A DNA stretch of 42,818 nucleotides from Chrysiogenia bacterium (GTDB lineage: Bacteria > JAGRBM01), in NCBI GenBank assembly GCA_020434085.1, contig JAGRBM010000369.1, positions 1 to 42,818 of the forward strand. Direction: 5' to 3'. Numbering within the stretch: position 1 is the first letter of the stretch; each line of letters opens with the position of its first letter. The position numbers and the translations under genes were made by a program. This document shows positions 6,246 to 40,002 of the stretch, in pieces. The notes under the pieces were generated by a model. It saw only the letters and a list, made by a program, of their open reading frames with translations, was not told the origin of the DNA and ran no database searches.

Positions 6246-6376
6246 GTAATCCCTCGAAATAACCGGTGCCGATCGACCGCGCACCGATGGACTCCCGAGA
6301 TTTTGGCAGCTGGATATGTCACCTGCTGTCACACCTCTCCGGGAACCTCAACAAAACGAACCCGGAGGAGGGACAA

Positions 6377-6694: not shown

Positions 6695-6805
6695 CTGCAA
6701 TTCTCCTAAAATAATATTTTGATACTGCACTTGTAATTTACGAATCATCATCTATGCTTATTATAACACACGGGAGCCCGGACTCTCTCGGGAAGGCAAA
6801 AAAAC
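6695..6805. promoter_or_regulatory. AT-rich divergent intergenic region (probable promoters for the R-M operon and the minus-strand small-gene pair)
   Basis: This is the most AT-rich stretch I noticed in the window (aaaataatattttgatactgcacttgtaatttacgaatcatcatctatgcttattataac). It holds candidate -35/-10 pairs such as TTGTAA-16 nt-TATGCT on the plus strand. No experimental support. Confidence 0.3.
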
Positions 6806-10512: not shown

Positions 10513-10764
10513 GGGGACACATCACGGGTTGCCCGAAATCGTGCGGGCGTTCAAGACGTTCTCGGCCCGTCGGATCAACGCGCTGCGGGGCACGCCGGGC
10601 GTTCCGGTCTGGCAACGAAATTACTACGAACACATCGTTCGTGATGATGACGATCTGGCTCGGATTCGTGAATACATCGCAAACAATCCGATCGGGTGGG
10701 GAGGCGACCGGGAGAATCCGGCAAATGCCGGCCGGGTGGAGCGTTTTCCCGACGAGGATGCGCC

Positions 10765-15963: not shown

Positions 15964-16038
15964 ATGCGCTCACGTCTTGTTGCCGGATTTGCATCATTTG
16001 TAGTTGTTCTTCTCATCACTGCCGCCAACGCGACAGCG
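15964..16038 (+). other. Sec signal peptide of the giant protein
   Basis: MRSR n-region, hydrophobic core LVAGFASFVVVLLI, and A-T-A cleavage motif before QTPS. Confidence 0.75.
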
Positions 16039-19000
16039 CAGACGCCATCGATCAGTGGGGGGCCGCCCAGCAGCGCCTTCCCCGGCGAGCAGCTGTGCTT
16101 CACCACTACCCTGACGAACACCGGCAGCCCCGGGTTTAACCCGTATCTGCGTGCGGTGCTTCCACCGGAAATTACCTACAGTTCTTCGACTTACTTGAGC
16201 ACGCCGCTCAGCACCACGGCAGTGGGGATTTTCCCGGCCTCGCCGGGCAACCAGCTCACTGATCCCAAGTCCATGAGCGCGGTCACCGGCCCCGACGGCG
16301 GGACGCTCACGCTGCTGACCATTCCCCTTGGCAGCGTGGTGGACGGAGGACCCGACATCGACGTGGACATTTGCCTGGCTCTCGACGCGATGGCACCGGT
16401 CGGCGCGCCCCTGGACGTGACGCTGCAGCCGGTTTTCGAACTCGGCGACACGCCTACCGGGGCCAACGGGCCCATCGAGGGCATGGCGATGACGACGCAG
16501 GTCACGCCCACGCTCTTCACTATGAGCGCGAGCAACAACGCCCCCGAGGGCGAGCGCGCGCCGGGACCCGATTTTTCCATCACTTATACGACCAGCGTCG
16601 ACGTGGCGAACGCCCAAACGATTTCAAACATCGATATTGATGATGTGCTCGACGCCGACCTGCAGTACGCGGGCGGACTGAGCATTGTCGGGGGTGCCGG
16701 ATGCATGGCCGTCAGTGCCCCCTCGATGGTGGTGCCTGGAGGAACACTGAACGTCACCTGCACCAGCATTGCCGGCACGCTTGCCGGCAGCGAACTGACG
16801 ATCAGCTATCAGGCCTACATCATCGATACGCTTGCCGAGACCGGCTGCGGCACGCAGGGACTGAGTAATGCAATCAGCATGAGCGCCGAGGACGCCATGA
16901 TGAATCCGCTTGCGGCTGCAGATTCCAGCGGCGTGAGCGCCAAGCACCTGCCCATCCAGAAGGGCGCCGGGCCCGGCACGGTCGTGCCCGATGACGTGGT
17001 GACCTACACGCTCAACTTCCAGGTGAGCGACTACGCGACGGCAAACCGGCTCATCATCAACGACGCGCTTCCCGACGGGATGGATTTTACTTCACATGTT
17101 GCGGCGACGGTCGGTGGCGGACCCATCGCGATCGCCCCGACGACCATGACGGCTCTGGGTATTACCAGCATCCAGTACGACGTGACGGCCGTGACGGGAA
17201 ACCTTGCGCCCGGAACGACGGGAACCATCAGCTATACCGGCACGGTGCGTCAGCAGTATCAGAATCCGGTCGCAAACGTCCTGCAGAGTGATCCGCTCTC
17301 CATGGGTGTGGTCAATGACTTCGACCTGACCGCAGGCGGCAGCCTGTGTAGCGATGCTTCCTCAGCGGGGGTGACGGTCAAAAAAATCAACGTGACCAAG
17401 CAGGACGCCACCGGCTCGCTCTTCTATGTGCCCGGCGACGTGGTGCGTTTTCGTCTCGAGGTCTCGATCGAATCCGGCGACAGCCAGGCCTTCGTGCTCG
17501 AAGACTATCTACCCTTGCCCATCTTCGATGTCGACGATCTGGACCTGACGGGCGCGCCAACCATCGCTGCGATGCCCGATGTAGAGTTCGCACCCAGCGA
17601 CAATGTGGGAATGGATCCCACAAGCGTCACCATCGACAGTGCCACCAACAAGATCCGGCTGGAGTTCCCGGCCGTGAGCAGCGGCATGCCGACCACGACG
17701 CAGACCATCGCGGTAGACATCCTCACCACCGTGACGAGCGAACCCTTTGCGCCCCAGCCCTTCCTGACCAACCTGGCGCAGGGCAGCACGGCGAACTCTC
17801 CCGGAACGGCAATCAGCTCGGCCGCCAATACCATGCTTGAGGTGCGCGGCGCCGAACTCATGGTGACCAAGGGTATTTCGGCCAGCTCCAACGCCGTCGC
17901 CGATTCCACCATCACGCCCGCACCGGCCATGACGCCGGTGGACGGCGATATCAGCCAGAGCGACGGTGGCGACACAATCACCTTCGTCACCACTGTGCAG
18001 AACATCGCCGGCGCGAATGCCTATGATGTTCAGATCGTCGACACGCCGGCAGTGGGCCTGACCGGCTGCGCGCTGATCTCGGTTGCCGACGGGATCGGCA
18101 CGCCGCTATCAAACCCCGCCGATTACACGGGCAACCTGTTTGCCGGGGGCATCACGCTCGTCAACCCGATTGAAGAAATGGGGGCGGCGCTGGGCAAGGA
18201 CGAGATCCTCGTCACCTATACCTGCGATCTTTCAAGCACCACGGAACCCGACGACGTCATCACCGACGATGTCACCGTGTTCTTCGCCCACAGTCCTGGC
18301 GCGACGCTCTTTGACCCCGTGACCGATGACGCCACCATCACCATGGCCGCGCCCGATATTTCCATGAGCGTGCTCAGCACCGACGTGCCTGAAACGGGTT
18401 CCAGCCAGGTAAATGCTTCCAATACGGACGTGACCCTGGGTGAGAACGTTACCTTCCAGATTGTGGTGACCGTGCCGGAAGGCCGCTCCGACATCGTGGT
18501 CGACAACGTGATCCCCGCGGGACTCAACTTTGTCTCCAGTAGCTGGATGGCAGGCGCGAACCTGACTCCAATGATGATGCCGCCCTCGGGCACGAGTCTT
18601 GACTTCGGCATTGTGAGCAATACGCCGGACGGGCTGAGTAACGGCGACGACCAGATCGTCATCGATCTCACGCTCCAGCTTCCGGCTGCGACGAGCATCG
18701 GCAACGGGGTTACGAGGACTCCGATGGCGGATCTCACCTACACGGGTGGGACGGCGTCCGACGGGGCGCCGATCGACATCGTGAAGCCCGTCCTGAATCT
18801 GACGTATGCGATCTCTCCGAGTTCCGGCGATGCCGGTACCGGCGTGACCTTTACGCTGACGGCCTCACACGCGGGTAGCTCGCGGGCGCCCGCCTACGAC
18901 CTGGTGCTCACCGACCTGCTCGATTCGGCCTACACGCTCAACGTGGGTTCGGTGACGGAGTTGGCACCGCTGATTGGAGCCACTGTGGACATCGGCAACA

Positions 19001-22000
19001 CCGGCGGCGATACCAGCGTGCAGGTTTCCGCCCCGGTGATGCTGCTCGGTGAGAATTTGAGGATCCAGTATACGGTTACCGTCAATTCCATGGCGATGAC
19101 TCAGACGACCATCACGACTACCGGCGAGTTGGACGCCGATTCGCTTCCCACGACAGGTGATCCCGAGGAAGCGCAATACAACATCACCCGCAACCGCAAC
19201 TTCACGGTGAACTCGCCGAGCATTACTCACACTATTGCCGCGACGAACGAACCCAGCACCGGGTCGGTCAACGGAGCGACGCCCAACATCGACCTGACCA
19301 TTGGCGAGCAGGTGACCTTCGAGGTCAATGTCACCTTCGCGGAGGCAACCGCAAGCGGCGTTTCGGTGGTGGAGCAGCTCGAAAACGCAGATGGTATTCT
19401 CAAGGTGCTGAGCAGCCAGATCACGGCGATCGGCGCCGACCTGAGTTTCACCGCGCCGGGCATCATGGTCGGGCTTGCGGGCACGGCCAGTGACAACGAT
19501 CTCGATACATTCTTCGATCGCGTTACCTGGAATCTGGGGGATGTGACCAATTCCGGCGCCAGTGCTGGAATATCCGCCGCCGACATGATGACCTTCCAGA
19601 TTGTTGCGCAGGTCATCGACAATCCGGCGAATGCCAACGGCGACCTGCTCGATAACACTGCGACACTCAATTACGGTGCCGGCCTTGCCATGAGCGCCGA
19701 CGTGGACCTCGACGTCGTCGAACCGGACCTGACGCTGAACCTGTCGGTTCCGGGGGCCGCGGTGGATTCGAAGGACGTCATCACCGTAACAGCCGAGATC
19801 GACCAGAACTCGCCCACCTCCCAGGCTGACGCGTTCTCGCTCGTCTATACGGACCTGCTGGCCAGCGCCGGTGTTAGTCTTATTCCCACTACTGTAAGCG
19901 CCCCCGGTGGCGTGGTTGTTGCCGGTAACGGCGGTGGCGACACGACCGTGGTCGTGACTTACCCGACGCAGGCGCTCGGTGCGGGCACGCTGACTCTCAC
20001 CTACCAGGTGCAGCTCGAGGACCCCTCTGTCGCGGGGCTGACGGTCCCGGTCTCGGGTACGCTGGGCTGGGACAGCCAGGGCGCAGTGCCCGGCGTGGAA
20101 ACCCGCAGCCACAGCGACGGCGATGGCGCAAGCATCAACATCGATGAACCCACGATCGCGCACAGTATCTTCGCGACCGACGTCGCCCAGACCGGCAGTG
20201 CCCGGCATGTGGGCGGCGTGGAAGATCTGGCCATCGGCGAGTCGGTCACGCATTATATGACCGTGACCTTTGCCGAAGGAACCAATCAGGGCATTGTCGT
20301 GCGTGAAGAGCTCGACACCGTCGGCGAGCGACTGGAGGTGGTGAGCACCCAGGTCGTCTCCGTGGGCGCCAACCTCTCGGGTGCGAGCCTCCCGGTCGTC
20401 GCCTCGACGGCAACAAATGTGACCGCCACCAGTGCCGAGTGGATCCTCAATGACATCGTGAACGCGGGTGATAATGGGCCCGGTCCTGGCTACGCAAACA
20501 ACGTCGATGGGGACGATCAGATCGTCTTCGAAGTGGTGGCGGTACTGGTCGACGACGCGCCCGATACCAATGTCGACGGCGACTCGCCCGTCAACGTCGC
20601 GCGCCTGCAGCATGACAATGGGGCTGACAAGACGGCCAATGTGACTCTCGACGTGGCAGAGCCGGTGCTCGATATCCAGATGGCTTCCGACAGCCCAACC
20701 GGTGACGCGGGCAATCTGGTGCAGTTTACTGTGACCGTTAGCAATGACGGCGGTGCGCCCTTCAACTCCGACGCGCCGGCTTTCGACCTGGTGATCGAGG
20801 ATCTACTCGACCCGGACCTGAGCCTTAACGTGGGATCGGTTACGCAGGTGAGTGCCTTGGGCGGCTTTGCCGTCGTGAGCGGGAACACCGGTGGTGATAC
20901 GACCGTGCAGGTAACCCTGCCGGCGCTGCTGCTGGGTGAAACACTTGAATTCACTTACACCGCAAGTATCTCCACGGCGGTCGCACCGATGGATATGATC
21001 TCCACCACTGCGACCATCGACTTCGACAGCTATCCGGCGGACCCGCCCAGTGGCGCTGCTGATCAGCGCGCCTACAACGCAAGCGAGGGCAACACCCTGA
21101 CCATCCTGCCCATCGTGGTGGGTCACGTCATCACGGCGACCTCGGAAGTCGCTTCTACCTCGGCGCAATATAATCCTGCCGTGACCGACCTGCTCATCGG
21201 CGAGCAGGTGACCATGGAGATCGAGATCACCCTGCCCGAGGGCACCACCTCGAACGCTGCACTCAGTGAGCTCCTGGACAAGACCGTTGGTGTCTACGAG
21301 GTCGTCAGCAGCGAGATCACCCATATCGGCGGCCAGCTCACCATCGGTAGCGGACTCATGGTAGGTGACTCCGGCGTGGCCAGCGATTCGAACGCCGACC
21401 TCGCCAACGATCAAGTCACCTGGACGTTGGGCAATGTGCTCAACAATCCCGACGGTATGCAGACCGACGACGATCGCATCCGCGCCGAGATCGTCGCACG
21501 TCCCATCGACCGCGCGAGCAATGCAGCGGCGGATCTGGCCACACATACGGCTGAATTCACGTACGGAATTGCCGCCAGCGGCAGTGCCGACGTGCAGACT
21601 GAGATCGTGGAGCCCGTTCTTGATCTGACGCTGGCGGGAACTCCCGGCAGCGCCGACGCGGGCGATACAATCAGCTACACGGGCACGATCACGCACAACG
21701 GCGCTTCGACCGGACCGGCACAGGATGTCATCTACACGCACGTGCTCGCGGGGCCGGATCTGATCCTGACGCCCGGCACGATCGTTGCTCCGGGCGGCAC
21801 GGTCATCAGCGGTGACAACCCCGGCGACGATACCGTCACGGTGGTCTTCCCCTCACTGGCGCTTGCGGGCGGCCCGCTCACGGTGGACTATGACGCCGTT
21901 CTCCAGAACAGCGTGCAGCCGACGGACACTGCCGATACCGAGGCGACGGTCCACTGGAACAGCGTCTCGCCCTTCAGTGCCGGTATCACCCGGCGCTCGG

Positions 22001-25000
22001 TTCGCCCGGCGACCGAGAGTACGGACATCGACGACAACGCGGTGGGGAGCGTCTCCATCCTCAGCACCACCGATGGCAATACCGGAACCGGGCAGGGCAA
22101 TCCCGTCCTGGCCGACCTGAACATCGGTGAGAGTGTGACCTTCAGCGTGACGGTGACCTTCATCGAAGGAACCACCAAGAATTCGAGTTTCAGCTTCGAC
22201 CTGCCCAAGGGGACGGGCGCGCTCGAAGTGACTGCATCGAGCGTGCTGGGCGTGGGGGCCCAGCTCTCGGGCGCCGGGCTGCCTACCGTGGGACAGGCGG
22301 GCGCACCCTCCGACACCAACGGCGATGGGATCGATGATCGTGTGACCTGGACGCTGGGGAACGTCCTCAATACCGCCGACCAGGCCCTCAACGGCCTGGA
22401 CCAGATTACCTTCAGCATTACCGGCCGCGTGGCCGATCTGCCGGTGAACGCCGGCGGCGATACGCTCACCAACACCGCGACGCTTACCTACTCGGGCGGC
22501 TCCCAGTCGCAGATGCTGGATGTGGACATTGTCGAGCCGGTGCTGGTTATCACCAAGACCGGCAGCCTGCCGCCGGGGACTGCGCAGGCGGGCGGCGCGG
22601 CGGTCACCTACACCGTCACAGTGGAAAACCCCTCGGGCAACGGTTCGAGCGCGCCCGCCTATGCGCTGCGGATCGACGACCTGCTCGACCCCGATCTGGC
22701 TCTCGTCGTTGGGAGCGTCACCGAGACCAGCGCACTGGGAATGAGCGTTGCCGAAGGAAACACCGGCGGCGACGACTCGGTGACCGTGAATCTGGGTGAC
22801 CTGCAGCTCGGAGAAACACTGACCTTCACCTACCAGGCGGGTGTGAATGCCGGCGTTGCCCTGGGCACCATGATCACCAACACCGCGAGCCTGCAGGCCG
22901 ACAGCGCGCCCACCTACGTGGCAGGCGCGACGCGGCGCCAGAACCCCAGCGACATGCACACGATTGAAGTGGGCGCGGTCGATCTGACGGTCTTGCTCGA
23001 CGATGGTGCGGTTACGGCTAATCCCGGCGACGACGTCACTTACACGGCGACCTATGAGAACGTGGGCAACGTAGCCGCCACGGGCGTCACGCTGAGCCTC
23101 GTGGTGCCCACCGGCACGACCTTCAACCTTGGCATGAGTGCGGGCTGGACCTGTCTTGTGGCGGGTGCAGCCGGTGACACTTGCTCCAACATGATCGGCG
23201 GCGTCCCGGCGGCCTCGGGCGCGGCCATGTCGAGCTTCGTGCTCACTGTGGACGATCCGGTCCCGGCCGGGGTTACCGAGGTGATGACGAGCATCGCCAT
23301 TGCCGACGATGGTGCCAGCGGCGCCGACGATGTACCCGGCGACAATTCGGCAAGCGAGAACACCCCGGTGAGCGCGGTTCCCGATCTCACCATCGATGTC
23401 GATGATCCCGCTGGTCCGGTCAGCCCCGGCGGGCAGATTCTCTACAGCGTGAGCTACGACAACAACGGTCCGGGTGCCAGCCAAGGGGCGACCGGGGTGG
23501 AGATCACCCTCATCGTGCCGGCCGGGACGAGCTTCGACGATCCGGCCACGACTGCGGCCTGGGCTTGCGCGCCCGATGACAGCGCAGGCAGCACTTGTAC
23601 GCTGTCGGTGGGCGGATTGGCTGCCGGTGCCATGGGCAGCGCGGATTTCGTGCTCGCGGTGAACGCTTCGGTGGCCACGGCTCTGGAGCAGGTGGTCCTT
23701 GACGTGGCCATCGCCGACGATGGTACCAACGGCGCCGATCCCGACCTGCTCAACAACATGGACTCGGCCGCGGCGGTTTCCATCGATGCCGCCCCGGATC
23801 TTGCGATGAGCCTGATGGGGCCGGGCCTCACCGCCAACCCCGGTGACAACGTCCCCTACACGGCAACCTACGACAACCTGGGTGACCAGGGAGCAACCGG
23901 CGTGACGCTCTCGCTCACTGTCCCGGCGGGAACCTTCTTCAACTTCAGTGCCAGCGCCGCGGGCTGGGCCTGCACGCCCACCTCCAGTGCAGGCAGCGCC
24001 TGCACCTTCGCGGTATCGGGCACGGTCGATCCGAGCGACCCGGCGGGCAATGTCGCCTTTACCCTCACCGTGGTAAATCCCGTTCCCTCGGGCACGCCTG
24101 GGACACTGAGCACTACGGTCAGCGTCAGCGACGACGGTGCCAACGGTGCCGATTCCGATCCGCTGAACAATTCCGACACGGCCATGGGAACGACCATCAA
24201 TGCCGGTCCAGATCTTACCCTGAGCGTTGATGATTCGATCAGCGCGGCCGATCCCGGGGATACGGTGGTCTACACCCTGGTTGTCGAAAACGTGGGCACC
24301 CAGGATGCCATCGGCGTCGTGCTGACCAACCCGGTACCGGTCGGCGTGAGCTTTAACGCCGGCGCCAGCAGTGCGGGCTGGGCTTGTGCGCCCGCCTGCA
24401 CGCTCTCGGTGGGAGCAGTCGCTGCCGGTGGCAGCCGCACGCGCACCATCGCCTTCGACATCCCCGCGACGCTGACTGCAGGAGTGGCTTCTATCACCAA
24501 CAGTGCCAGCGTGGCCGACGACGGCAGCGGCGGAGCGGACCTCACGCCCGGTGACAACAGCGCGAGCCACGTGACCCCCGTGGATGCGGCCCCCGATCTC
24601 TCGCTGAGCCTCGACGACGGCGGAGCCAGTGTCGTGCCCGGCAACCCGATTACCTATACGACGACCTATGAGAACAACGGCACGCAGAACGCAGCCGGCG
24701 TGAGCATTGCCGTGACCGTTCCCACGAATACGAGTTTCAATTCCGGTGCCAGCACCGGCGCCTGGGTCTGCGTGCCTGATGCGAGTCCAGGTTCGATCTG
24801 CACGAGCGCTATCGGCGCCGTAGCGGCGGGCGCCTCGGTCATGATCGACGTGGTGCTGGACGTCGTTGTTAGCGTGCCCGGGGGTACTACCGAGATCACC
24901 ACCAACGCGCAGATCAGCGATGATGGTGCCAACGGTGCTGATCTCACCCCGGCTGACAACAGCGCTTCGGATACCACCACCGTGAGCGCGGCGCCCGACT

Positions 25001-28000: not shown

Positions 28001-31000
28001 CCAGCGGTACGACCTTCAATGCCGGTGCGAGCAACCCGCTCTGGATGTGCGCGGGAGTGAGCTGCACCTTGAGCGTCGGCGCGCTCGCCGCGGGCGTGGC
28101 GCCCGTGGATGTGGACTTTGCCGTGGACGTCAACGATCCGGCGGCGGCGGGGCTGGGTTCGCTTTCCTTCAGCGTGAGCATCGCCGACGACGGCGCAAAC
28201 GGCAGTGATGCCAACGGGACCGACAACTCCGACACCTCAAATGCCCCGACGGTTACGGCGGCGCCTGACCTGGTGATCGATGTCGCAGGCCCCGGGGGCA
28301 GCGTCGGCGCGGGCGACCCGATCGGCTTCACGATTACCTACCAGAACACCGGCAGCCAGGCTGCGACGGGCGTCGAGCTCAGCTTTACGATTCCGCCGAG
28401 CACGCAGCTCAATGCGTTGGGTAGTCCCGGTTGGGTATGCGCTCCCGATGGCAGTGCAGGCAGTGCTTGCACCTATGCCATCGGCAGCGTGCCTTCGGGC
28501 GGCGCGGCGATGGGCGTGGGCCTGACCCTCATGGCGCTCGATCCAATCGATTCGGGCGTTGAGGGCGCGGACATCAGCGTGACCCTGGGGGATGACGGCG
28601 CCAACGGCGCTGACGAGAACCCGCTCGACAATACCGAGAGCGCTTCAGACGGTGGCGGCGATGTCGCGCTTGCGGCGGCGCCGGACCTCACGATCAGTGC
28701 CGATGACGGCGGCGCCACGCCCATGCCCGGTGACTCGGTAAGCTACGCATTGGATTATGGCAACGCAGGTGGCCAGTCGGCTGCCGGCGCGCAGATCTCA
28801 GTGACGGTGCCGACGGGATCAAGCTTCAACCTCGGCATGAGCGCGGGCTGGACCTGCCTGGTGGCAGGGGCAGCCGGCGACACATGCAGCTTGAACATCG
28901 GTGCCCTTGCCGGCGGCGCCATGGGCGGCACCACCGCAGTGCTGGATGTGGACTCACCCCTTGGCAGCGCCATTGAAGTTGTTGCCTTCAGCGCGAGCAT
29001 CGCCGACACCGCAGCGATGGAAGCCGACGAGAATCCGGCCGACAACACCGCAGCAGTGAACACCGCGATCGATGCAGCGCCCGATCTGCAGCTCAGTATT
29101 GTGGGGCCCGGTGGCAGCGTTGCCCTCGTGGCGGCGGGCCCGAATCCCACGATTGCCTACGCCTTTAACTACGCCAACGACGATACGCTCGGTAGCCAGG
29201 GCGCGACCGGAGTGACGCTGACGACCACGGTCCCGGCGGGTACGCTCTTCAGTTCCGGCGATACGAGCGCGACGTGGACCTGCCTGCCCGGCAACGGCGC
29301 GGGCAGCACCTGCACCCACAGCGTGGGGACCCTGGCCCTCAACGGCAGTGGTAGCGCGGACTTCGTTCTTCAGGTGGAAAACCCGGCGGCCGCCGTATTT
29401 ACGAGCGTCTCGATTTCCGGTGCGATTGGCGATGACGGCATGAACGGCGCCGACGTGGCGCCCGCCGACAACACGAGCACTTCGGGCGCGGTCAGCATTG
29501 ATGCTGCTCCCGATCTGCTGATCACCGTAACGGGCCCGAACCTGAGTGCCATGCCGGGACAGAATGTCGCCTACATGGTGGGTTACCAGAATATCGGTAC
29601 GCAGGACGCGACCGGTGTGGTGCTCACCATGACAATCCCGCAGGGTACGAGCTTCAATCCTTCCGCCAGCGCGGCGGGTTGGAGCTGCACGCCGAGCATT
29701 CTTGCGGGCAGCACCTGCACCTACAGCGTCGGCAATGTGGGCGCCGGCGATCCTGCCGGCAGCGTGAACTTTGTCGTCATTGTGGATAGCCCCGTGGCGG
29801 CGGGCGTGCCCGCGACCATCACGCTCGGTGGCTCCGTCGGCGACGACGGCGCCAACGGTGCCGATCTCGACGGTGGCAATGACATGACGAGCGATGCCGG
29901 AAGCAGCATCGACGCTCAGCCCGATCTGACCTTGAGCGTCTTTGACGGCGGCGCGAGCGTCGTGCCCGGCGGGCAGGTGAGCTACCTGCTCAGCTACGCC
30001 AATACCGGCGACAAGGGCTCCACCGGTGTCGCACTGACTGCCACGGTTCCTCCCGACGCGACCTTCAACCTGGGGGCGAGCACCGCGGGCTGGGTCTGCC
30101 TGCCGGATTCCAGCGCGGGCAGCACCTGCACCTTCAGTGTGGGCGGCGTTCCCGCCGGCGGCGCGGGCAGCGCCACCTTCGTGGTAGATATCGCCCTGAG
30201 CGTGGGCTCCGGTGTTACTCTTATCACTCAGAATGCGAGCATTGCCGATGACGGTATGAATGGCGCCGACGCAACGCCCGGTGACAACGCCGCGAGCGAT
30301 ACGACAAACCTCAACGCCGAGCCCAACCTGGCCCTCACCTTCAGTGACGGCGGGGCGGGGGCCATGCCCGGTGATACGGTGACCTACACGGCTACCGTGG
30401 AGAACCAGGGCAACCAGGAAGCCACCGGCATCATCGTCGCGAGTTCCGTGCCCGACAACACGGTATTCAATCCTGCTGCCAGCACCATGGGCTGGGTCTG
30501 TGTGCCCGACAACTCGGCCAGCAGCAACTGCACCATCAACGTGGGAGCGCTCGTCTCGGGCGCCATGACCAGCGTGAACTTCGCCGTGGATATTGACGAC
30601 CCAGTTCCCAGTGGTGTGACCCAGATCAGTGCTTCGGGTTCGGTGGCCGACGACGGTACCAACGGAGTAGATCCCGATCTGGGCAACAACGGCCAGAGCG
30701 ACACTACGCCGCTGGGTGCGTTCCCCGACCTGAGCGTTTCGGTAACAGACCCGGCAAGCCCCGTCGTGCCCGGCGACAGTGTCAGCTACGTGATTGCCTA
30801 CGACAACGTGGGCGATCAGGACGCGGTGAACGTGGTGATTGATGTGATCCTTGGTGCGGGCGCGGGTTTCAATGCCGGGGCGAGCAGTCCGGGCTGGAAC
30901 TGCACGGGACTTTCCTGCTCGCTCAGTGTGGGCGCGGTGGATGCCGCCGATCCGGCGGGGAGCACGACGCTCGTCGTCGACATTGACGATCCTATCGCAG

Positions 31001-34000
31001 CGGGTATCGACAACTTGAGTGCAAGCCTTTCCATTGCAGATGATGTGGCCAACGGCGCCGACGCCAATGCGGCCGACAATACCGATTCCTCGGTCTTGCC
31101 GGTGGTCGATGCCGCGCCCGACATGGCGATCACTGTGAGCGGTCCGGGCGGCAGCGCCCAGCCCGGTGACACGCGTGTCTACACGGTGACCTATCAGAAT
31201 CTGGGCAATCAGGATGCCACGGGTGTCACGCTCGAAATGACCGTTCCGGCGGGTACACAGTTCAATCCGACCGGCAATCCCGGCTGGATCTGCGCCCCCG
31301 ACGGCAGCGCGGGCAGCACCTGCACCTTCCTGGTCGGAGGCGTGGGCGCCGGCGATCCGGCAGTCGGCGTGGCCTTCACGGTGGACGTGCTCGGCGCAAT
31401 CGGCACGGGAATCGAGCTCATCGACCTGGGCGGCTCGGTCATGGACGATGGCGCCAACGGGCCCGATACCGGTGGTGGCAACAATGGTGACAACGACGAT
31501 GGCACCAGTATCGACGCGGCCTCCGATGTGGCGCTCAGCCTGAGCGATGGTGGCGCAATGCCCGGTCCCGGCGCGAGCGTGAGCTACATAGCCGGCTACG
31601 CGAACAACGGCGATCAGGATGCCGGCGACGTGCGCCTGTCTTTCATGGTTCCGGCCAATACGACCTTCAACGCCGCAATGAGCGATCCCTCCTGGAACTG
31701 CATACCCTCGGCGGCGGCAGGCAGTGCGTGCGAGTTGATTGTGGGTGCGCTGGCCTCGGGTGGTTCGAGCATGGCCGCCATTGTGCTCGATCTTGACGAT
31801 CCGATTGCAGCCGGTGTTGCCGATATCACGCTCACTGTGAGCGGCACTGATGCTGTCTCGCCCGATCCCGAGCCCACGCCCGCCGACAACAGCGCGAGCG
31901 TGATGACCCCGGTGCTTGCTGCGCCCGACCTCTATGTGGACGTGAGCGATCCGGGCGGCAATGTCACCCTTGCGCCCGCAATGACGGGCGGGGCGATCTC
32001 CTACACGATCTCCTACGGCAACAGTGCCGGCATGGGAACGCAGGCCGCGACAGGCGTGGCTCTTGCGGCGGTGGTCCCCGCCGGGACGAGTTTCTCCGAT
32101 GCCGACACGGTGGCAGCATGGGCTTGCGTGCCCGGTAGCAGTGCGGGAAGCACCTGCACGTTGAGCCTGGGCGCGCTCGCATTGGGGGCCTCCGGCAGCG
32201 CGGACTTCGTGCTACGGGTGGACAATCCGGTCGAAGCAGCAATCGAGAACGTCGTCCTGAGCGTGAGCATCGCCGACGACGGCGCGAATGGCGCGGACGT
32301 CGATGGTGGCAACAATACCGATACCTCGACGACGACCAGCATTACTGGCGCCCCGGACCTGCGCTTTGATGTGGTGGGGCCGGGCCTGACGGCGTCACCG
32401 GGTGAGGACATCATCTACTCACTTGAGTATGAGAATGTGGGTACCCAGGATGCCGCCGGCGTGTTCGTTTCGATGACCGTCCCGGCAGGAATGGTCTTCA
32501 ACCAGACGCTGAGCCCGGCGGGGTGGGCGTGTTCGCCCGATCTCAATGCCGGTGCCACGTGCATCTACAACGTTGGCGCCGTGGGCGCGGGCGATCCGGT
32601 CGCCGCGGTTCCCTTCATCATCACGGTTCCTGCGATCGTGGTTGCCGGAGTGGGTCCGGTCATTCCGGTAGGCGGTTTCATCGCCGATGACGGCAACAAC
32701 GGACCCGACCTCGCGCCTGCCGACAATGTCGATACGGACAGTGGCACCAGTATCGACGCCGCGCCCGATCTCTCGCTGATGCTCTCGGACGGCACAGCCT
32801 CTCCGGTGGCCGGCGGCAGTGTGATCTACACCATCAATCTTGAGAACCTCGGCGATCAGGATGCCACGGGGCTGGTCGTCACCGAGACCGTTCCGGCGAG
32901 CAGCACCTTCAGTGGCGGGGCGAGCACGCCCGGTTGGGTATGCATGGGTGGCGGCGGCGCCGGCGATACCTGCACCATTGCCATTGCGACGCTGAATGCG
33001 GGCTCGAGCGCGTCGCTGAGCTTCGCGGTGGTTCTCGACGCGACCTTGCCCGCGGGGCTCGATGAAATCGTAAATACTGCAAGCATTGTCGACGACGGCA
33101 TGGGCGGCAGTGATTCCGACGCCATGAACAACACCGATACGGTGAACACTGTGGTCGGCGCCATGCCCGACCTGGTTGCCGGTCTCGACGATGGCGGCGC
33201 CAGCGCCGCGCCCGGCGACACGGTGACCTACACGGTGAGCTGGCAGAACAACGGTACCCAGGGTGCAACCGGCGCGAGTGCCACCATCGCGATTCCGCTG
33301 AACACCACCTTCAACGCAGGGATGAGTGACCCCTCCTGGAACTGCTTCCCCAACGGGAACCCGTTGAGTGTGTGCACGCTGCCCATTGGAGCCGTCGCTT
33401 CGGGTGATTCGGGTATGGCGAGCTTCGCGCTTACCTGGAGCAACCCCATGCCGGCGGGCGTCGATGAGATCATTGTGAGCGCAAGCGTCTTCGACGACGC
33501 AGCCAACGGCGCGGATACCATCCCGGCAGACAACACCGCGCAGGATGCGACGCCGGTCATCGCGGCGCCGGACCTTGGTATCGACATTGACAACCCGGCC
33601 GGTCCGCTGGCTGCCGGTGGTACACTGCTCTTCGAGATCGCCACGGCCAACGGCGGCAATCAGGACGCGACCGGCGTGGTGCTGAGCGCCACGATTCCGG
33701 CGGGCCTTGAGTTCGATGCCGGAGCAAGCGACGCGCTCTGGTCGTGTGCGCCCAGCGCGACAACCGGGCCCGCATGCACGCTGAGCCTCGGAGCCTTTGA
33801 CGTGAGCGATCCCACCGACCAGCGCGACTTCGCGTTGCGCGCGCCCGATCCGCTGGTCTCGGGCCTCGATGATTTCACAGTGAGCGTGAGTGTGGCCGAC
33901 GACGGCGCCAATGGTGCCGACTCCAATGCTGCGGACAACACCGATACAAGTGCCAGCGTGAGCTTGGATGCTGCGCCCGACCTGCGGGTGACAGTCACGG

Positions 34001-37000
34001 GCCCCGGTGGCAGCGCCGAGCCCGGTGATACTCGCGTCTACTCCGTCACCTATGACAACGTCGGCACGCAGGACGCCACCGGCGTGGAACTCACCTTCAC
34101 AGTTCCACCGGGTACAAGTGTCCAGACCGGAGCGAGCCCCGGCTGGGTGTGCTTGCCCGATGCGAGTGCCGGCAGCACCTGCACCTACGCGGTGGGAACG
34201 GTTGGTGCGGGTGATCCCGCTGAGTCGCGCACCATTGCCCTCGACGTGCTCGATCCGGTGCCCGCCGGCGCGCACATAATCGACCTGACGCTGGATATCG
34301 GCGATGACGGTGCCAATGGCCCCGACGAGAACCCGGTCGACAATTCCTTCAACGAAACCGACACCGCCATCGATGCCGAGCCCGACCTGGCACTGTCCAT
34401 GAGCGGGGACGTCGCAACCGTGATGCCCGGCGGCGCAGTGGTCTACACCCTCGACTACGTCAACAACGGCGATCAGGACGCCACCGGCGTCGTGCTGACC
34501 GAGACCGTGCCCGCCAACACCGCCTTCAACGCCGGCGCGAGCACAGGGGGCTGGATGTGCCTGGTCGCCGGTGCGGCGGGCGATACGTGTATATTGAACA
34601 TCGGTGCTCTGGGTTCGGCTGCGATGGGAAGCGCCGATTTCGCCGTGGACGTGATCGCTGTGGCGCCCGCAGGGGCGGATAGCCTCTCAAATACGGCAAG
34701 TGCGGCCGACGACGGCGGCAACGGCGCCGAGCCGACGCCCGCCGACAACATGGCGATGGTGGAGACCACCCTCGACGCCGCGCCCGATCTCTCACTGAGT
34801 CTTGACGATGGCGCCATGAGTGCGGCGGCCGGTGGGGCGATCACCATTGACGTCATTGTGGACAACGCGGGTGACCAGGACGCGACCGGCGGCATGTTGA
34901 ACTTCACCGTGCCCACCGGAACGACGTTCAACGCTGGATTGAGCGCCATGGGCTGGAACTGCATGCCCGACGCCAACGCCGAGGCGAGTTGCACCCTTGC
35001 ACTGGGTGCTCTCAGCGTGGCCGGCACACCCGCCGCGTCTGTCACGATTGTGCTGGACGTGGATAACCCCGTCCCGGCCCTGCTGGAGTCGGTGACCACC
35101 ACGGTCAGCCTCGGCGACGATGGTGCAAACGGCGCCGACCAGATGCCTGCCGACAACGCGGCCGGTATCACGACCCCGGTGGACGCCGCGCCTGATTTCT
35201 CGCTCTCCAAGAGCGATGGATCGGCCGCACCGCTTCCGGGCGAGGTGGTCAGCTACATGCTCAATTATCAGAACACCGGCGATCAGGACGCGGCCAGCGT
35301 CACTCTCTCCGAAGTCGTTCCTGCCAATACGAGTTTTGAGACGGCCTCCAGCACGATGGGCTGGATCTGCGTGCCCGATACCAGTGCCGGCAGTGCCTGC
35401 ACGCTGAGCGTGGGCGCCTTGGCAGCCTCGGCCATGGACAGTGCAGTCTTTGCCGTGCGCGTGGACGGCTCGCTCGTGGGCGGCATGACCAGTCTTTCCA
35501 ACACCGCCGGCGTAACCGGTGATGGGGTGGGACCGATTGCCTCCAACCCGGTTACTACCGAAGTAAACTTTGCGCCCACGACCATGAACGATGCGGCTAC
35601 GGTGCAGCAGGAGCGCGCTCAGCAAATCGACGTGCTGGGCAACGACCTGGACGGCAATGTCCCGCCCGAGGCCCTGAATATTGTCGCAGTGGAGACCGGT
35701 GATGCCGCCGCAGGTGGCAGCGTGAGCATCGATCCGGGCGGATTGACGCTCACCTATACACCGAGCATCGGCTTCACCGGCGTCGATACCTTCGACTATA
35801 CGGTCGCAGATCCCCACGGGGCGCAGGCGACCGGCACCGTCACGATCACAGTGGTGGGTGTGCTTATCACAGAGTCCGACGGGGAAACCCGCGTCTTCGA
35901 AGGTGCTCTACCCGAGTATGCGGACAGCTATGAAGTGCGGCTGACCAACTGCCCGAGTTCGCCGGTCAATATCGCCCTGTCCCTGGATGCGGACATTTTT
36001 GTGAGCCCGGCGGTCCTTAATTTTGCCTCTCTGGGCTGCGTCGGTGCACCGATTCCGCAGACGGTCAACATTCAGGGCGCGGTCGATACCATGATCGAGG
36101 GCGATGAGATCGCCACGATTACTCATACGGTGAGCAGTCTGGATCCGAACTTCGACGGTGCTCCCGCGGCCGATGTGGACGTACATGTCGAGGACGCCGA
36201 TCTGGTGGCCGATCCCGGCGAGGACCGCACGGAACTGCCCGGCCTGTTGCGCCTGGACGGTTCGAACAGCCATGCGCTGGGCGACCTGGCCCTCAACTTC
36301 AACTGGCAGCCGGTGAGCGGTCCCATGGTTACGCTCACCGGATCGACTGGGCCGCGCCCGAGTTTTGTAGCGCTTGAGCCCGGCAATTATGTCTTCCGTC
36401 TGACGGTTTCCATCGTTACGGGAGAATATGATTCCGAGGAAGTGACCATCACTGTCACCGATGTGCCGCCCATCGCGCGAATCTCGCGCAACGTCATGGG
36501 AGTTGCCTCGCCGCCGATGGAATCGGCAGGGATGGATGTCGGCGAGACGTTGCCGCTCTCGGGTCTGCTCTCGTCGGACGATAATCTGACGCCGATCGAT
36601 TCCTTCACCTGGCAGCTCGGAGACGAAGTACCCTTCGGGGCGGACATCAACGAAGTGCTCGACGATCCGTCTTCACCGACGCCGGTGTTCACGCCGCTGG
36701 TGAGCAGCGCACCGGTGCCGGGCCTCTACGAGATCGAACTTGTTGTCAGCTCTGACGGCACCGATTCCGAGCCCAGGCTCCTTCGCGTCTACGTGCGCAA
36801 CTTCGACGAGATGGATCTCGCTGGATCCGTGGTGGAGCCCGCGGCTGATGCTGGTGTGGACCAGTACGCTGGCGTTGCGAGCGTTTACCAGCTCAACGGC
36901 ACCGCCAGCCTGGATCCCGACTCGCGCCAGCAGGGAGCGGAACTCGAATACTCGTGGCGCCAGGAACTGGGCACCCCGGTCACGCTTTCGAACCCCGCGG

Positions 37001-40000
37001 CCATTTCGCCGAGCTTCGTGATTCCCTCGCAGGGGGCGTTTACCTTCTGCCTGGAAGTGCGCGATGTGCTCGACGATGACCTGCCCAGTATTGAAGACTG
37101 CGTGACCATCACGGCCTTCGATCCGGGTGCGAACTACGCACCGGTGGCGGTGCCGGAATTCGTGGATGTCGATGACGACAATCTCGATGGGCGGGTCAAT
37201 GTGGGTGAAGTCTTCACCCTTACGGGGATTAACAGCACCGATCTTGATGGTGATGCCCTCACGGCGAACTGGAGGCTAGTCGATGCGCCGGGCTTCCACT
37301 CCTTCTCCCCAACGCTCAATGAGACCGAAATCTCCATGATGCCCTTCGTCGAGGGGACTTACCTATTCGAACTGACCGTCAACGACGGCATGGCGAGCAG
37401 CGTGCCCGTGGTCCTACCGGTCCATGTGCTGCCGGTCGGCACCGATGCCGCCCTGGCGGTTGCCAAGGCGGAGGTCGAGGAGAACACCAAGCTGACGCTC
37501 AGCGGTATCGTTCCCTTCATGCTCGATGGGGCGGAAAGCATCGGGAGTGATGGGCTCACGAACGCAAATCTCGGATACCTGTGGCAACAGACCGAGGGTC
37601 CCACCGCGATCATCGAAGATGCCAGCGCAATGCTTCCGATCGTGACGCCCATCGTCTCGGGCTACTACTGCTTCGAACTGACGGTGCGCACGCCTGGTGG
37701 CAGTCAGGCACACGACGAGGTGTGTCTGGAGGTCGAAATCACCGGTGGGGAGACTCGTAATCTGATCCCCACGGCAGTGCCCAGCGGGCCGCCCTATACG
37801 CGCAAGGATGTTGCAGTCACGATCTCGGGTACGCTGAGCAGCGATTCGGCTGCTGATGCCGACGGCGTGACGGGCGTGGTCAACGGCCTTGGCCTTCGCT
37901 GGTCCCAGTGTGGCGGCGTGCCGGTTGTGCTCGATGACAACCCCTTCACGCCCACCTTCACGCCGCCCGAGGACGGGGAGTATTGTTTTGAGCTGGTCGC
38001 CGACGACGGCGAAGCACTCGGCCTGCCCCAGCGCATAAGCGTGCAGGCGATCCTGATTGGTGCGACAGGCGGCGGGGGCACCGGTGACTGCACGCTCAAT
38101 CCCTCGGCCCCGGCCGGTGGGTGGACGTTACTGCCGCTGCTCAGTCTGCTTATGCTCTTCTTCTGGGATCGGCGCCGGCGCGGGGTTGCGGTGGATTCAA
38201 AACGGGGTAGGGGAACCGGGCTGCTGGGCCTTGCGCTGTTGTTCGCTCTTTCACTGGCTGGCAATGCTCACGCGCAGGCAGACCTGGGATTCCAGGCCGA
38301 GCACTTCGATCCGCTGCCCTCGCAGAAGCACAACATTCTCAACATTTCGCGCAGCGAGCTGATTGCCGAGGGAAATTACTCCCTGAGCATCGTCTCGAAC
38401 TATGCGAACGATCAGGTGCAGTTCGCGGCCTTCATCAACCCGTTCACCATCACCGAGCGGCCGATGCACCACAAGTGGCAGAGCGACCTGCTGGCTTCTT
38501 ACGGCGTGTTCGACTGGGCGGAGATCGGCATTGCAATCCCCGTGGTTTGGCGCCAGTCGGGCGACCCGCTCACCCTGATCGGGATGCCCAATACCGAGCT
38601 CGACGGGGCGGCCTTCGGCGATATTCGGATCGTTCCCAAGGTCAATCTGATCGCCCCTGATGATGGAGAGGGCTTCGGCATGGCATTTCTGATGCCGCTT
38701 TTCATCCCCATCGGGAAAAAGAACTTCCTCGCATCCGACCAGTTCTTTCGCGTCGAGCCGCGACTGGTTGCCGACTGGACCTTTGCCAACAAGGCCAGCA
38801 TTGCCATCAACCTGGGCGTGCAGATTCGTCCGCAACGCACCTTACTTAATTTCGTGAGCAACGATGTCTGGCGCTGGGGCATCGGCATGGAAACCCCCCT
38901 TGATTACGACTGGATCAAGAACGCAACCGGCTTCGAGCATCTCGAAGACTGGCGCGTCGGCGTCACGCTGTTCGGAAATCAGCAGATTCAGGACAACGTG
39001 GACTTCGGGGACTTCTTCTCGGGCGGCAATACCTCGGGTGATGATCCCACGGAGTTCATGGCCATGGTGCGATGGGATTTCGAGCCCGACTGGATGACCC
39101 AGCTCGCCTTCAGCAGCGTGCCCAATTACGGCGTAGGCGCTCCCGATTGGCGCATTACCTGGGGCATTACTTTCGAACCTGCCGTGGAAGAGGCGAGGGG
39201 CCCGGTGGATACCGACGGGGACGGGTATTTCGACCCCGACGATGAATGCCCGCTTGATCCCGAAGACTTCGACAATTTTCAGGATCTGGAAGGATGCCCC
39301 GATCCCGACAACGATCAGGACACGATTCTTGACGTGAATGACACCTGTCCGATGGATCCCGAGGACATGGACCAGTTCGAAGACCTCGATGGCTGTCCCG
39401 ATCCCGACAATGATCAGGACACGATTCTCGACGTGGTCGACCGCTGCCCCATGGAGCCCGAAGACATGGACGGCTATCAGGATGAGAACGGCTGTCCCGA
39501 TCCCGACAACGACGACGACGGAATTCTCGATATCGCCGATTCGTGCCCGATGCAGCCCGAGGATCTCGACGGCTTCGAGGACGAGGACGGCTGTCCCGAG
39601 CCCGGCCCCCTGGCGGCGGCCCCGAAGAAGCTGATTGCGCTGGACAAGATCCAGTTCGAGACCGGCAGCGCCACCCTTCGCAAGGAGAGCTACCCGATTC
39701 TCGACGACATCGTCTCGCAGCTGGTGGCCAACCCCTACATCACCAAGGTGCGCATCGAGGGGCATACCGACAGCCGCGGCGGCGACGCCTACAACCTCCA
39801 GCTCTCCGAGGACCGCGCCTTCGCGGTGCGCCAGTATCTGGTGAACTCAGGAATCGACAGCTCGCGCCTGCTCTCAAAGGGCTACGGCGAGACCCAGCCC
39901 ATTGCCGACAACGACAGCGCCAGCGGGCGCGAGCAGAACCGCCGCGTGGAGTTCGTCATCCTGGCCATCGACGGAAAACCGGTGGAGGGAGTGGAGCAAT

Positions 40001-40002
40001 AA
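15964..40002 (+). CDS. giant secreted repeat protein (8012 codons): DUF11-rich adhesin-like protein continuous with an OmpA-family module
   Basis: A single uninterrupted ORF with GGGGGA upstream of the ATG. The N-terminal signal peptide is [27 protein letters not shown]. The body is rich in D/T/A/G/S/V and made of beta-sandwich-type repeats. Module architecture is given in the features below. Confidence 0.85.
   Translation: [8012 protein letters not shown]
18346..22974 (+). repeat. about five tandem bimodular coding units (~0.94 kb, ~312 aa each)
   Basis: The second module of each unit starts at V/A-[EK]-P-x-L at 18781, 19717, 20656, 21607 and 22531, giving spacings of 936, 939, 951 and 924 nt. 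Each unit has two modules. Module A reads ...ETGS..(D)LTIGE.VTF.V.VTF.EGT... and module B reads ...GDAG..V.FT.T..H.G.S.AP.AYDLV..DLLD..L.L..GSV....GNTGGDT.V.V....LLGE.L...Y... Confidence 0.7.
22975..35565 (+). repeat. 31 tandem DUF11-type modules (~125-140 aa) organised as a 7-module supercassette repeated about 4.4 times
   Basis: Each module follows the pattern (A)PDL.[LIV]......PG..[LIV].Y...Y.N.G.Q.A.GV.L...VP.GT.F......GW.C.P....AGS.C......[LIV]..G........[LIV]......G.......[LIV].DDG.NGAD....DN........, the classic DUF11 'conserved repeat domain' layout. Supercassette starts are at 22975, 25819, 28678, 31519 and 34378. Confidence 0.85.
35566..38085 (+). other. C-terminal adhesin modules: cadherin-like, Calx-beta-like, and six PKD/K319L-like repeats
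   Basis: - Cadherin-like module: [23 protein letters not shown]...[22 protein letters not shown].
- Calx-beta-like module: [13 protein letters not shown]...[16 protein letters not shown].
- Six repeats with the pattern L.G..S.D......Y.W.Q..GP.V.L......P.F.P...G.Y.F.L.V.D.
Boundaries are judged by eye. Confidence 0.6.
38086..38184 (+). other. C-terminal-type sorting tag (MYXO-CTERM / GlyGly-CTERM-like) located internally
   Basis: It reads [33 protein letters not shown]. That is a Gly/Cys signature, a hydrophobic helix and an Arg cluster, but it is not followed by a stop codon. Confidence 0.6.
38191..40002 (+). CDS. OmpA-family outer-membrane protein module with its own signal peptide (in-frame inside the giant ORF; may be a separate or processed product)
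   Basis: An in-frame GTG at 38191 opens (M/V)[29 protein letters not shown], a signal peptide spanning 38191-38274. After it come about 300 aa with beta-barrel-like alternation, TSP3 repeats, and then the OmpA C-terminal domain ([10 protein letters not shown]...[30 protein letters not shown]...[27 protein letters not shown]). Confidence 0.55.
   Translation: [603 protein letters not shown]
39208..39603 (+). repeat. thrombospondin type 3-like calcium-binding repeats (tandem ~96-nt units)
   Basis: It opens with [15 protein letters not shown]. Repeated units follow of the form CP.(D/E)PED.D.(F/Y).D.(D/E)[13 protein letters not shown].CP. The three central units are clearly related at the DNA level. 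Confidence 0.8.

Follow-up and report, generated by a model that had tools for sequence, protein, structure and literature searches.

How a bacterium could export the product of a single 8012-codon open reading frame (ORF) and hold it at the cell surface is the question raised by contig JAGRBM010000369.1 of the assembly GCA_020434085.1. The window analyzed herein is this entire 42,818-bp contig from activated sludge, and the ORF, which runs on the forward strand from an ATG at 15964 to 40002, covers 24,039 of the 42,818 nt (56%). In the present study, two units were recognized in its product. Unit 1 (aa 1-7406), a giant fibrillar adhesin of highly acidic composition, comprises a signal peptide, approximately 54 beta-sandwich modules, and a sorting tag of the MYXO-CTERM type. 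Unit 2 (aa ~7410-8012), which starts approximately 10 residues past the tag, is a TraB-like envelope anchor. Because a further conserved signal peptide and then a 12-strand barrel come after the tag, the ORF represents a fusion of two proteins, one TraA-like and the other TraB-like. It is likely that this ORF encodes a polyprotein precursor of two partners that have separate genes elsewhere, in which the giant tagged adhesin and the TraB-like anchor would be separated by processing and the adhesin displayed on the surface as a fiber.

The junction and the TraB-like unit

The junction between the two units (aa 7366-7437) reads GGGGTGDC-TLNPSAPAGG-WTLLPLLSLLMLFFW-D-RRRR-GVAVDSKRGRG-TGLLGLALLFALSLAG-NAHA and contains two hydrophobic segments. 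The first has the layout of a MYXO-CTERM tag, as the counterpart of the invariant Cys (Cys7376, in ..GGGGTGDC..) lies 10 residues ahead of the transmembrane (TM) helix WTLLPLLSLLMLFFW, the helix is followed by D-RRRR, and the TIGR03901 model aligns over its positions 1-32 of 34. The same Cys/TM/Arg layout was observed at the equivalent place in at least 45 fused homologues. The tag is not located at the extreme C-terminus, with 606 residues following RRRR. A GlyGly-CTERM/rhombosortase tag was also considered, as GG precedes the helix, and was rejected given that no TIGR03501 match was obtained and the host and family context is myxobacterial. In an alignment with stand-alone homologues of unit 2, the second segment corresponds to their cleavable signal peptides, and the tag's Arg cluster coincides with the n-region of those signal peptides. 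The A-Q pair at the second cleavage site is kept in at least 90% of 66 sequences, and the predicted post-cleavage residue, Q7438, begins QADLGFQAEHFDPLPSQK. In the AlphaFold2 (AF2) model, helices were placed at aa 7390-7405 (tag) and 7416-7430 (second signal peptide). The linker between them contains an in-frame GTG at 38191, 6 nt past a G-rich stretch and just before the second signal peptide, which could be an alternative internal start.

The AF2 model of aa 7375-8012, built from a 66-sequence alignment, reached a pLDDT of 85.5, with most of the barrel above 90, and showed the two helices, a barrel of approximately 12 strands, an Asp-rich linker, and an OmpA fold. Using Foldseek, the barrel was matched to FapF (5o65, 5o67, and 5o68) and the COG4313 channel 4rl8 at E values of approximately 1e-10, with TM-scores normalized to the target of 0.6-0.72 and a sequence identity of 10-13%; homologues of unit 2 carry PF13557. 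The top match of the periplasmic part was 5wtl, the periplasmic portion of a Capnocytophaga OmpA (E 9e-19, 40% identity), and the TSP3 columns D.D.DG..D..D.CP..PED.D.F.D.DGCP were invariant in the alignment. The OmpA-like domain scored 91.7 bits with PF00691 (cut-off 27.2), conserved the D and R peptidoglycan-binding motifs within GHTD...N..LS..RA...NRRVE, and was matched to the C-domains of OmpA, Pal, OprF, and YfiB at an rmsd of 1-2 A. A signal peptide, an outer-membrane barrel, TSP3 repeats, and an OmpA domain, all present in unit 2, are the components of TraB (PMC12045341), and TraB (NF033763) was the best NCBIfam family for this unit. Nevertheless, the 262 bits obtained do not approach the TraB cut-off of 700 bits; unit 2 is a TraB-like paralogue and not TraB.

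An earlier note on this sequence had reported neither an RTX/type I secretion system (T1SS) C-terminus nor an autotransporter barrel at the very end of the protein, and had attributed export and anchoring to an unusual tag-plus-OmpA arrangement. The first of these statements is upheld, as the ORF gave no HemolysinCabind match and ends in an OmpA domain; together with the Sec signal peptide, these features do not fit a T1SS substrate of the RTX/LapA type. The second is correct insofar as no barrel is terminal or of the autotransporter type, and no autotransporter Pfam domain was detected in the ORF, but a FapF/COG4313-type barrel is present, and the 270 periplasmic residues that follow it depart from the type Va layout. 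The key role assigned to the tag-plus-OmpA end is supported, whereas the arrangement itself is less unusual than assumed, recurring in approximately one fifth of TraB-like genes. The note had overlooked the second signal peptide, the barrel, and the composition of the ORF from two proteins, but is otherwise largely correct.

Recurrence of the fused layout

An internal MYXO-CTERM motif followed by a barrel and an OmpA domain has been described for MXAN_5598 of Myxococcus xanthus, which was called atypical and whose N-terminal part was proposed to be processed and surface-anchored; according to the same report, internal MYXO-CTERM motifs occur "in rare cases" (Guo, Haft & Wall, mBio 2025, PMC11980579). 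More than 7,900 homologues of unit 2 (603 aa) were recovered; nearly every one is a stand-alone protein of 600-700 aa that carries a signal peptide of its own, and the three loci examined held solitary genes with housekeeping genes around them. Among 80 loci of GTDB species representatives, 15 (~19%) have unit 2 in frame behind a long tagged ORF, and in these 15 the long ORF ends with GxC-TM-RRR and a signal-peptide-like segment, after which unit 2 continues in frame. Of these 80 records, all but a few bear the label Myxococcota or the older name of this phylum, Deltaproteobacteria. The fused loci include complete or cultured genomes, namely those of Corallococcus coralloides (a 2909-aa ORF from an ATG), Pyxidicoccus (3507 aa), Vitiosangium, and Hyalangium.

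When 1.84 billion representatives were searched exhaustively with phmmer, 1253 unit-2 matches were obtained. Among the best 150, 27 match far from the N-terminus and thus belong to fused proteins, with lengths up to 4861 aa, and every one of the 27 that was read carries the same junction layout. The proteins P0050, P0075, P0093, and P0100 are fused as well. P0050 is a truncated gene call, corresponding to the last 958 aa of a 3797-aa fused ORF (L007 1484-12877, GCA_041690335.1); a long TSP3 array in this ORF is broken by a run of N, which is why only those 958 aa were annotated, and the remainder of the frame carries small antisense ORF calls. In 20 aligned fused cases, the order of GxC-TM, basic loop, second h-region, and AxA-Q was uniform, the basic loop measuring 3-23 residues with a net charge from +3 up to +9 or +10 and the second uncharged stretch 12-27 residues. 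By our own reading of these junctions, a small residue occupies both -3 and -1 before the conserved Q in 19 of the 20 proteins. The passengers of the fused proteins vary and include DUF11, cadherin/Big_9, Big_13/Big_7, EGF, HYR, and ASH-type immunoglobulin (Ig) domains.

Six further loci have separate genes, with the stop of the tagged ORF adjoining or overlapping the TraB-like start. These loci are intermediate forms with the arrangement of traA and traB, the ORFs of which overlap by 4 bases (PMC3325183). In a neighbor-joining tree of the barrels, which is distance-based only, fused forms are dispersed among solitary ones, and the nearest barrels to that of the window are solitary; this dispersal suggests, at the level of barrel sequences, repeated fusion and fission. 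In Myxococcus sp. Y35 (NZ_CP143624.1, L030 9700-10100), the barrel groups with those of the fused proteins from Corallococcus and Pyxidicoccus, the tagged ORF stops right past the Arg cluster (with RNRLRRTGRPHTPAD as its last residues), and the TraB-like frame opens 56 nt on. This split arose either by natural fission or through a frameshift in an MXAN_5598-type gene.

Integrity of the giant gene

The giant ORF was confirmed as a real gene. Our own translation of 15964-40002 contains one stop only, at its end (40000-40002), and the open frame starts 7 codons 5' of the ATG (15943). The GC fraction at codon positions 1/2/3 is 0.63/0.52/0.78, a coding signature common to the other real genes of the window. 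On self-comparison, no exact DNA repeat of 30 nt or longer was present inside the ORF, and the best internal match of at least 100 bp showed 78% identity; repeat collapse or chimerism is therefore unlikely. The DNA of this gene occurs in many activated-sludge metagenomes, and three runs of three studies (X1, X2, and X3), from activated sludge and other metagenomes, provide Logan contigs that tile the ORF with 99-100% identity at even depth, with 0 differences across pieces up to 4.1 kb. Across the junction (38160-38280), 0 differences and no stop were observed in 4/4 independent runs from four studies, and a sequencing error is thus not the cause of the continuous frame. Consequently, the uninterrupted 8012-codon frame reported by the earlier note holds, and the collapsed or chimeric repeats that, if revealed by long reads, would according to that note refute it are unlikely. 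Apparent joints that emerged from the contig tiling were dismissed as k-mer noise, since one side spans only 20-24 letters and the contigs involved are unrelated and of high depth.

One Logan contig of run X2 carries a 3-nt in-frame deletion at 17380 and a 2-nt deletion at 18812, located 25 nt from the contig end, and the latter is either a strain frameshift variant or an end-of-contig error. Neither promoter nor terminator scans at the two ends of the ORF gave signals exceeding the shuffled expectation.

Modules of the adhesin and feature map

The features of the ORF are listed in Table 1. The N-terminal signal peptide, MRSRLVAGFASFVVVLLITAANATA, was recognized by inspection; it ends in ANATA, followed by Q, and has two Arg in the n-region, a hydrophobic core, and A-T-A at -3/-1, with no lipobox Cys. 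The AF2 model of aa 26-480 (pLDDT 92) comprises three consecutive Ig-like beta-sandwiches, for which Foldseek returned integrin-leg-like and generic Ig chains, and no specialized tip domain was recognized in the distal region (aa 26-794), where Foldseek found generic Ig chains only. This region matches DUF11 and the TIGR04226 isopeptide-pilin domain (129 bits), and based on the latter match some of the N-terminal domains may have an isopeptide bond. The closest N-terminal homologue is P0121, the gene of which ends at the contig end; its contig also harbors a multihaem cytochrome gene and a HaoB_nitrify gene (L088 7176-9788). The five super-units that follow share a mutual identity of 28-42%, gave full-length matches of 376-435 bits to a self-built hidden Markov model (HMM), and probably contain two beta-sandwich domains each.

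The central array was resolved by a self-built HMM into 31 matches with E values of 1e-36 to 1e-56. The mean identity among the modules is approximately 40%, rising to 51% at an offset of seven modules and 48% at 14, compared with ~40% elsewhere, and longer modules of 142 aa return every seven modules. This super-repeat indicates that the array grew by the duplication of blocks of approximately 950 aa. PF01345 matched the array with 329 and 362 bits in 30 stretches and the whole ORF, in tandem and above the gathering score, with 76, 329, and 362 bits in 35 stretches. This DUF11 family has recently been renamed CLIPPER and is a CnaA-like stalk domain of fibrillar adhesins (PMC12617251). When the profile of the 31 repeats was compared with the PDB, the top match was the CLIPPER structure 9IFR (E 0.005), which was reached by this profile only, as phmmer with one central repeat pair gave no match in the PDB. 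Each array module contains exactly two Cys and a DDGxNGxD..P.DN motif. An intramolecular Lys-Asn/Asp isopeptide is not expected in the array (aa 2337-6538), which has 4 Lys in 4202 aa, none of them conserved; the Lys position of 9IFR aligns to Ser or Val. Because of the missing conserved Lys, the two Cys, and the DDGxNGxD motif, the central repeats are probably isopeptide-less variants stabilized by disulfides and Ca.

In the membrane-proximal PKD stretch, six W..(Q)..GP...F.L.V.D units were identified by inspection, and this stretch aligns to the PKD-plus-tag end of NF038112, a myxosortase-dependent M36 peptidase. The passenger as a whole is extremely acidic (858 D+E versus 91 K+R). The Sec signal peptide claimed by the earlier note was thus recovered, its estimate of 45-50 beta-sandwich modules compares with the ~54 counted here, and its impression of a fiber-type adhesin agrees with the tens of such modules typical of fibrillar adhesins; Calx-beta, listed in the domain map that it suggested, was not detected by Pfam.

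Table 1. Features of the giant ORF and their positions in the window.
Feature	Residues (aa)	Window positions	Strand	Basis
N-terminal Sec signal peptide (SPase I type)	1-25	15964..16038	+	Inspection of translation
Distal region, ~5 beta-sandwich (DUF11/pilin-like) domains	26-794	16039..18345	+	AF2, Foldseek, HMM
Five super-units of ~310 aa each	795-2336	18346..22971	+	Self-built HMM, DUF11/TIGR01451 matches
31 back-to-back DUF11/CLIPPER modules of ~134 aa	2337-6538	22972..35577	+	Self-HMM, PF01345
Big_9/Cadherin_5-type Ig domain	6539-6632	35578..35859	+	PF17963 2.7e-17, PF17892 1.6e-9
Module of ~115 aa	6633-6749	35860..36210	+	No Pfam match at E <= 0.01
Six PKD (K319L-like) domains, membrane-proximal stalk	6750-7365	36211..38058	+	PF22352 7.6e-44, PKD, PKD_4
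Internal MYXO-CTERM-like sorting tag	7366-7406	38059..38181	+	Cys/TM/Arg layout by inspection
Basic linker and second signal peptide	7407-7437	38182..38274	+	Alignment with stand-alone homologues
Outer-membrane beta-barrel, ~12 strands, FapF/COG4313 type	7438-7740	38275..39183	+	AF2, Foldseek
Four TSP3-type Cys-containing Asp-rich calcium-binding repeats, periplasmic linker	~7747-7880	39202..39603	+	Conserved columns
OmpA-like peptidoglycan-binding domain	7898-7993	39655..39942	+	PF00691 3.9e-26

Genomic neighborhood and host

The neighbors of the giant gene encode an alpha-2-macroglobulin, a type I restriction-modification (R-M) system with a Fic-HsdR fusion, YgjP, and WS/DGAT. The best named matches of the WS/DGAT neighbor belong to Myxococcota, Polyangia, and Kofleriaceae (60-65% identity), and from these matches and the distribution of the unit-2 homologues, a Myxococcota origin is inferred. 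No exact match to HsdM or to two alternative WS/DGAT starts was present in the contig index. The alpha-2-macroglobulin gene (3-4100, minus strand) encodes more than 1366 aa with MG2, bMG3/5/6, and A2M_BRD domains and runs off the left contig end. The region from 5.3 to 7.4 kb shows a weak coding signal, and an ORF at 5355-6332 (minus strand) contains a Cys_rich_CPCC domain (PF14206, 1.4e-14). Further along the window, hsdM (7438-8943) and hsdS (ending at 10160) precede the hsdR gene (10696-14631, plus strand), the product of which carries an N-terminal Fic/DOC domain (PF02661, aa 120-215) before HSDR_N, SWI2_SNF2, and T1RH-like_C, and a YgjP-like metallopeptidase gene follows (14631-15368).

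Discussion

Herein, we propose a model for the maturation of the giant precursor, all steps of processing and localization being inferred, while the fusion, the two hydrophobic segments, the conservation of the cleavage motif, and the recurrence of the layout were observed. The N-terminal signal peptide would lead the chain to Sec, and the passenger would be translocated until the tag helix halts the transfer, with the RRRR/KRGR loop remaining in the cytoplasm. The second hydrophobic segment would then restart translocation as an internal signal peptide, after which signal peptidase I would cut behind AHA(7437). The freed unit 2 in the periplasm would be inserted into the outer membrane by BAM and bind peptidoglycan. 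Unit 1 would stay in the inner membrane via its tag and be processed at the Cys motif by a myxosortase of the MrtX family, as MrtX cleaves the MYXO-CTERM tag. The resulting protein of ~7,350 aa would be moved to the surface as a lipid-anchored fiber, in line with what was demonstrated or suggested for TraA and suggested for MXAN_5598; in M. xanthus, MYXO-CTERM proteins use the type II secretion system (T2SS) (PMC11980579). The membrane-proximal end of the fiber would probably dock on the co-made barrel partner, resulting in a tie to the cell wall. TraA and TraB form 1:1 complexes, in which TraB tethers to peptidoglycan (PMC12045341), and the fusion would secure synthesis at this ratio. Thus, judging from the motifs at the junction, the two proteins are most likely separated by processing, and one mature fiber of 8012 aa is probably not formed. 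In activated-sludge flocs, the adhesin likely serves long-range adhesion between cells or between cells and matrix.

Several observations weigh against this model. The window tag scored 10.9 bits with TIGR03901 (E 0.47) against a cut-off of 20, no match to TIGR03382 was obtained, and the tag segment alone gave no NCBIfam match at E <= 1, the 10.9-bit match appearing at E <= 10; by comparison, the control internal tags of fused homologues scored 15.5-19.7 bits on TIGR03901, and three of them pass TIGR03382. The tag has GDC where G-C-[SGA] is usual, the spacer from Cys to helix is longer, and the AF2 confidence of the two junction helices is low (pLDDT 36-67). The first 800 residues (15964-18363) have only 11 homologues in 5.8 billion proteins, with 34-46% identity, and those with names are metagenome-assembled genomes labelled Gammaproteobacteria, Xanthomonadales, Wenzhouxiangella, and Acidobacteriota, with no Myxococcota among them; horizontal spread of adhesin heads or mis-binning may account for these labels. 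The gene was not found in any RNA run. Moreover, genes for a myxosortase (CPBP protease) and a T2SS are absent from the 42.8-kb contig, their presence in the organism being assumed, and we know of no precedent for the surface export of a lipidated fiber of ~735 kDa by a T2SS.

The size of this substrate is also one reason to consider that the FapF-type 12-strand barrel itself serves as the outer-membrane conduit, with the passenger covalently kept or threaded independently of the T2SS. A folded fiber of ~735 kDa would be a hard substrate for a T2SS, FapF, among the best structural matches of the barrel, is a polypeptide-secreting channel, the order of passenger and then barrel is that of type Va autotransporters, and the barrel is often coupled to a tagged adhesin (~19% of loci plus the operon forms). 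However, approximately 80% of the family are solitary genes among housekeeping genes, the split operon versions work without a covalent link, and no autotransporter Pfam domain accompanies the barrel. In addition, the segment between passenger and barrel comprises a stop-transfer tag and a cleavable signal peptide with a conserved AxA instead of a pore-spanning linker, and in M. xanthus, TraA and TraB get to the outer membrane independently (PMC12045341), with MYXO-CTERM proteins using the T2SS (PMC11980579). We therefore regard export through the protein's own barrel as quite improbable. A related proposal is that the hairpin of tag, basic loop, and signal peptide is a selected "polyprotein joint" and the barrel a conduit or assembly platform for its giant partner. 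This proposal is unlikely in our estimation; if true, joint and barrel conduit would constitute a previously unrecognized secretion and anchoring pathway, used by approximately one fifth of TraB-like genes and handling a precursor of 8,000 residues.

The fusion might also reflect a neutral or recent loss of a stop codon, with unit 2 translated from the GTG at 38191 and the read-through incidental and tolerated since signal peptidase cuts the product. This explanation departs from the preferred one, a polyprotein separated by processing, only over whether the fusion is selected. The position of the GTG 6 nt after the G-rich stretch, the operon forms with abutting ORFs, and the split of the MXAN_5598-type gene of Myxococcus sp. 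Y35 directly after the tag speak for this explanation, as does the mixing of fused and stand-alone forms in the neighbor-joining tree, where those nearest to the window are stand-alone, which suggests easy and repeated fusion and fission. Nevertheless, as no stop codon separates the units, every ribosome completing unit 1 continues into unit 2, and the precursor is therefore obligatory; furthermore, the fusion has been kept in many deep lineages with a constrained junction, and the junction is identical in four independent metagenomes. Incidental stop loss thus accounts for the fusion with only a small probability. An artefact of assembly or sequencing, through collapsed repeats, a chimeric join, or a stop or frameshift lost at the junction, is very improbable. 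The contig does derive from a short-read-style metagenome assembly, and one X2 contig shows the 2-nt deletion at 18812 near its end. Against this explanation, the ORF lacks exact repeats of at least 30 nt, its internal repeats do not exceed 78% identity, contigs from independent runs cover it at even depth without differences in pieces up to 4.1 kb, four runs agree at the junction, and the same architecture is present in complete genomes of cultured strains.

MXAN_5598 is among the closest known systems, sharing with the window ORF a large adhesin, an internal Cys/TM/Arg tag, a barrel, and an OmpA domain in one ORF with the same junction grammar. Compared with the 2909-aa protein of Corallococcus coralloides, which lies in the context of an MXAN_5598 orthologue (L012), the window protein is ~2.75 times longer (8012 aa), and its passenger is composed of DUF11/CLIPPER and PKD domains rather than Big_7/Big_13/Glucodextran_B and TSP3. 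The Corallococcus gene is located between FtsA and FtsZ (order FtsQ, FtsA, fusion, FtsZ), whereas the window gene is flanked by R-M genes and WS/DGAT and does not occupy an ftsA-ftsZ position. In the neighbor-joining tree, the window barrel falls outside the fused clade of Myxococcaceae, and the window tag lies below the HMM cut-offs and scores lower than the control internal tags. Based on the neighbors, the passenger, the position of the barrel, and the divergent tag, the window gene is not an orthologue of MXAN_5598. TraA and TraB resemble the window in that a MYXO-CTERM surface receptor is immediately followed by a partner with a signal peptide, barrel, TSP3 repeats, and an OmpA domain. 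In the window, however, the units share a single ORF instead of overlapping, unit 2 scores far under the TraB threshold, and the stalk consists of DUF11 and PKD domains without the PA14 variable domain and the TIGR04201 Cys-repeat stalk of TraA; the sole PA14 match in the giant ORF was spurious (E 0.057), and there is no evidence for membrane exchange.

A similar combination of a signal peptide, a tandem DUF11/CLIPPER stalk, and an OmpA-like anchoring end is present in B9T28_05395 of Acinetobacter silvestris (9IFR; PMC12617251). The central repeats of the window differ from CLIPPER in lacking the isopeptide Lys and keeping a Cys pair instead, and its anchoring adds an internal sorting tag, a second signal peptide, and a barrel. 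The window barrel is like FapF and 4rl8 in fold, and 5wtl is like its TSP3-OmpA part, with 40% identity; no Fap operon is present in the window. Cleavage of a membrane polyprotein by signal peptidase at an internal signal sequence is known from FbcH, the cytochrome b/c1 polyprotein of Bradyrhizobium, an unrelated protein that involves neither a sorting tag nor a second protease.

Thus, the architecture described herein was known but barely characterized, and the window gene is a new and exceptionally large case. At 8012 aa, it is the largest fused adhesin-anchor in this study, as the maximum among the best 150 matches from 1.84 billion representatives was 4861 aa. The fused layout has been mentioned once in the literature, for MXAN_5598, yet it is common in Myxococcota (~19%), and in contrast to the "rare, atypical" status given to it in M. 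xanthus, our survey reveals a common and rule-bound design across this phylum. The size record, the junction rule, and the commonness of the layout are what the present study adds. The junction also provides a model for internal sorting tags, in which the Arg cluster would at the same time be the n-region of the second signal peptide, so that cleavage by two membrane proteases would give both partners in a 1:1 ratio. Moreover, TraB-like proteins may be general docks, tethered to the cell wall, for myxosortase substrates, and such a role bears on the adhesive multicellular surfaces of myxobacteria and on floc formation in wastewater.

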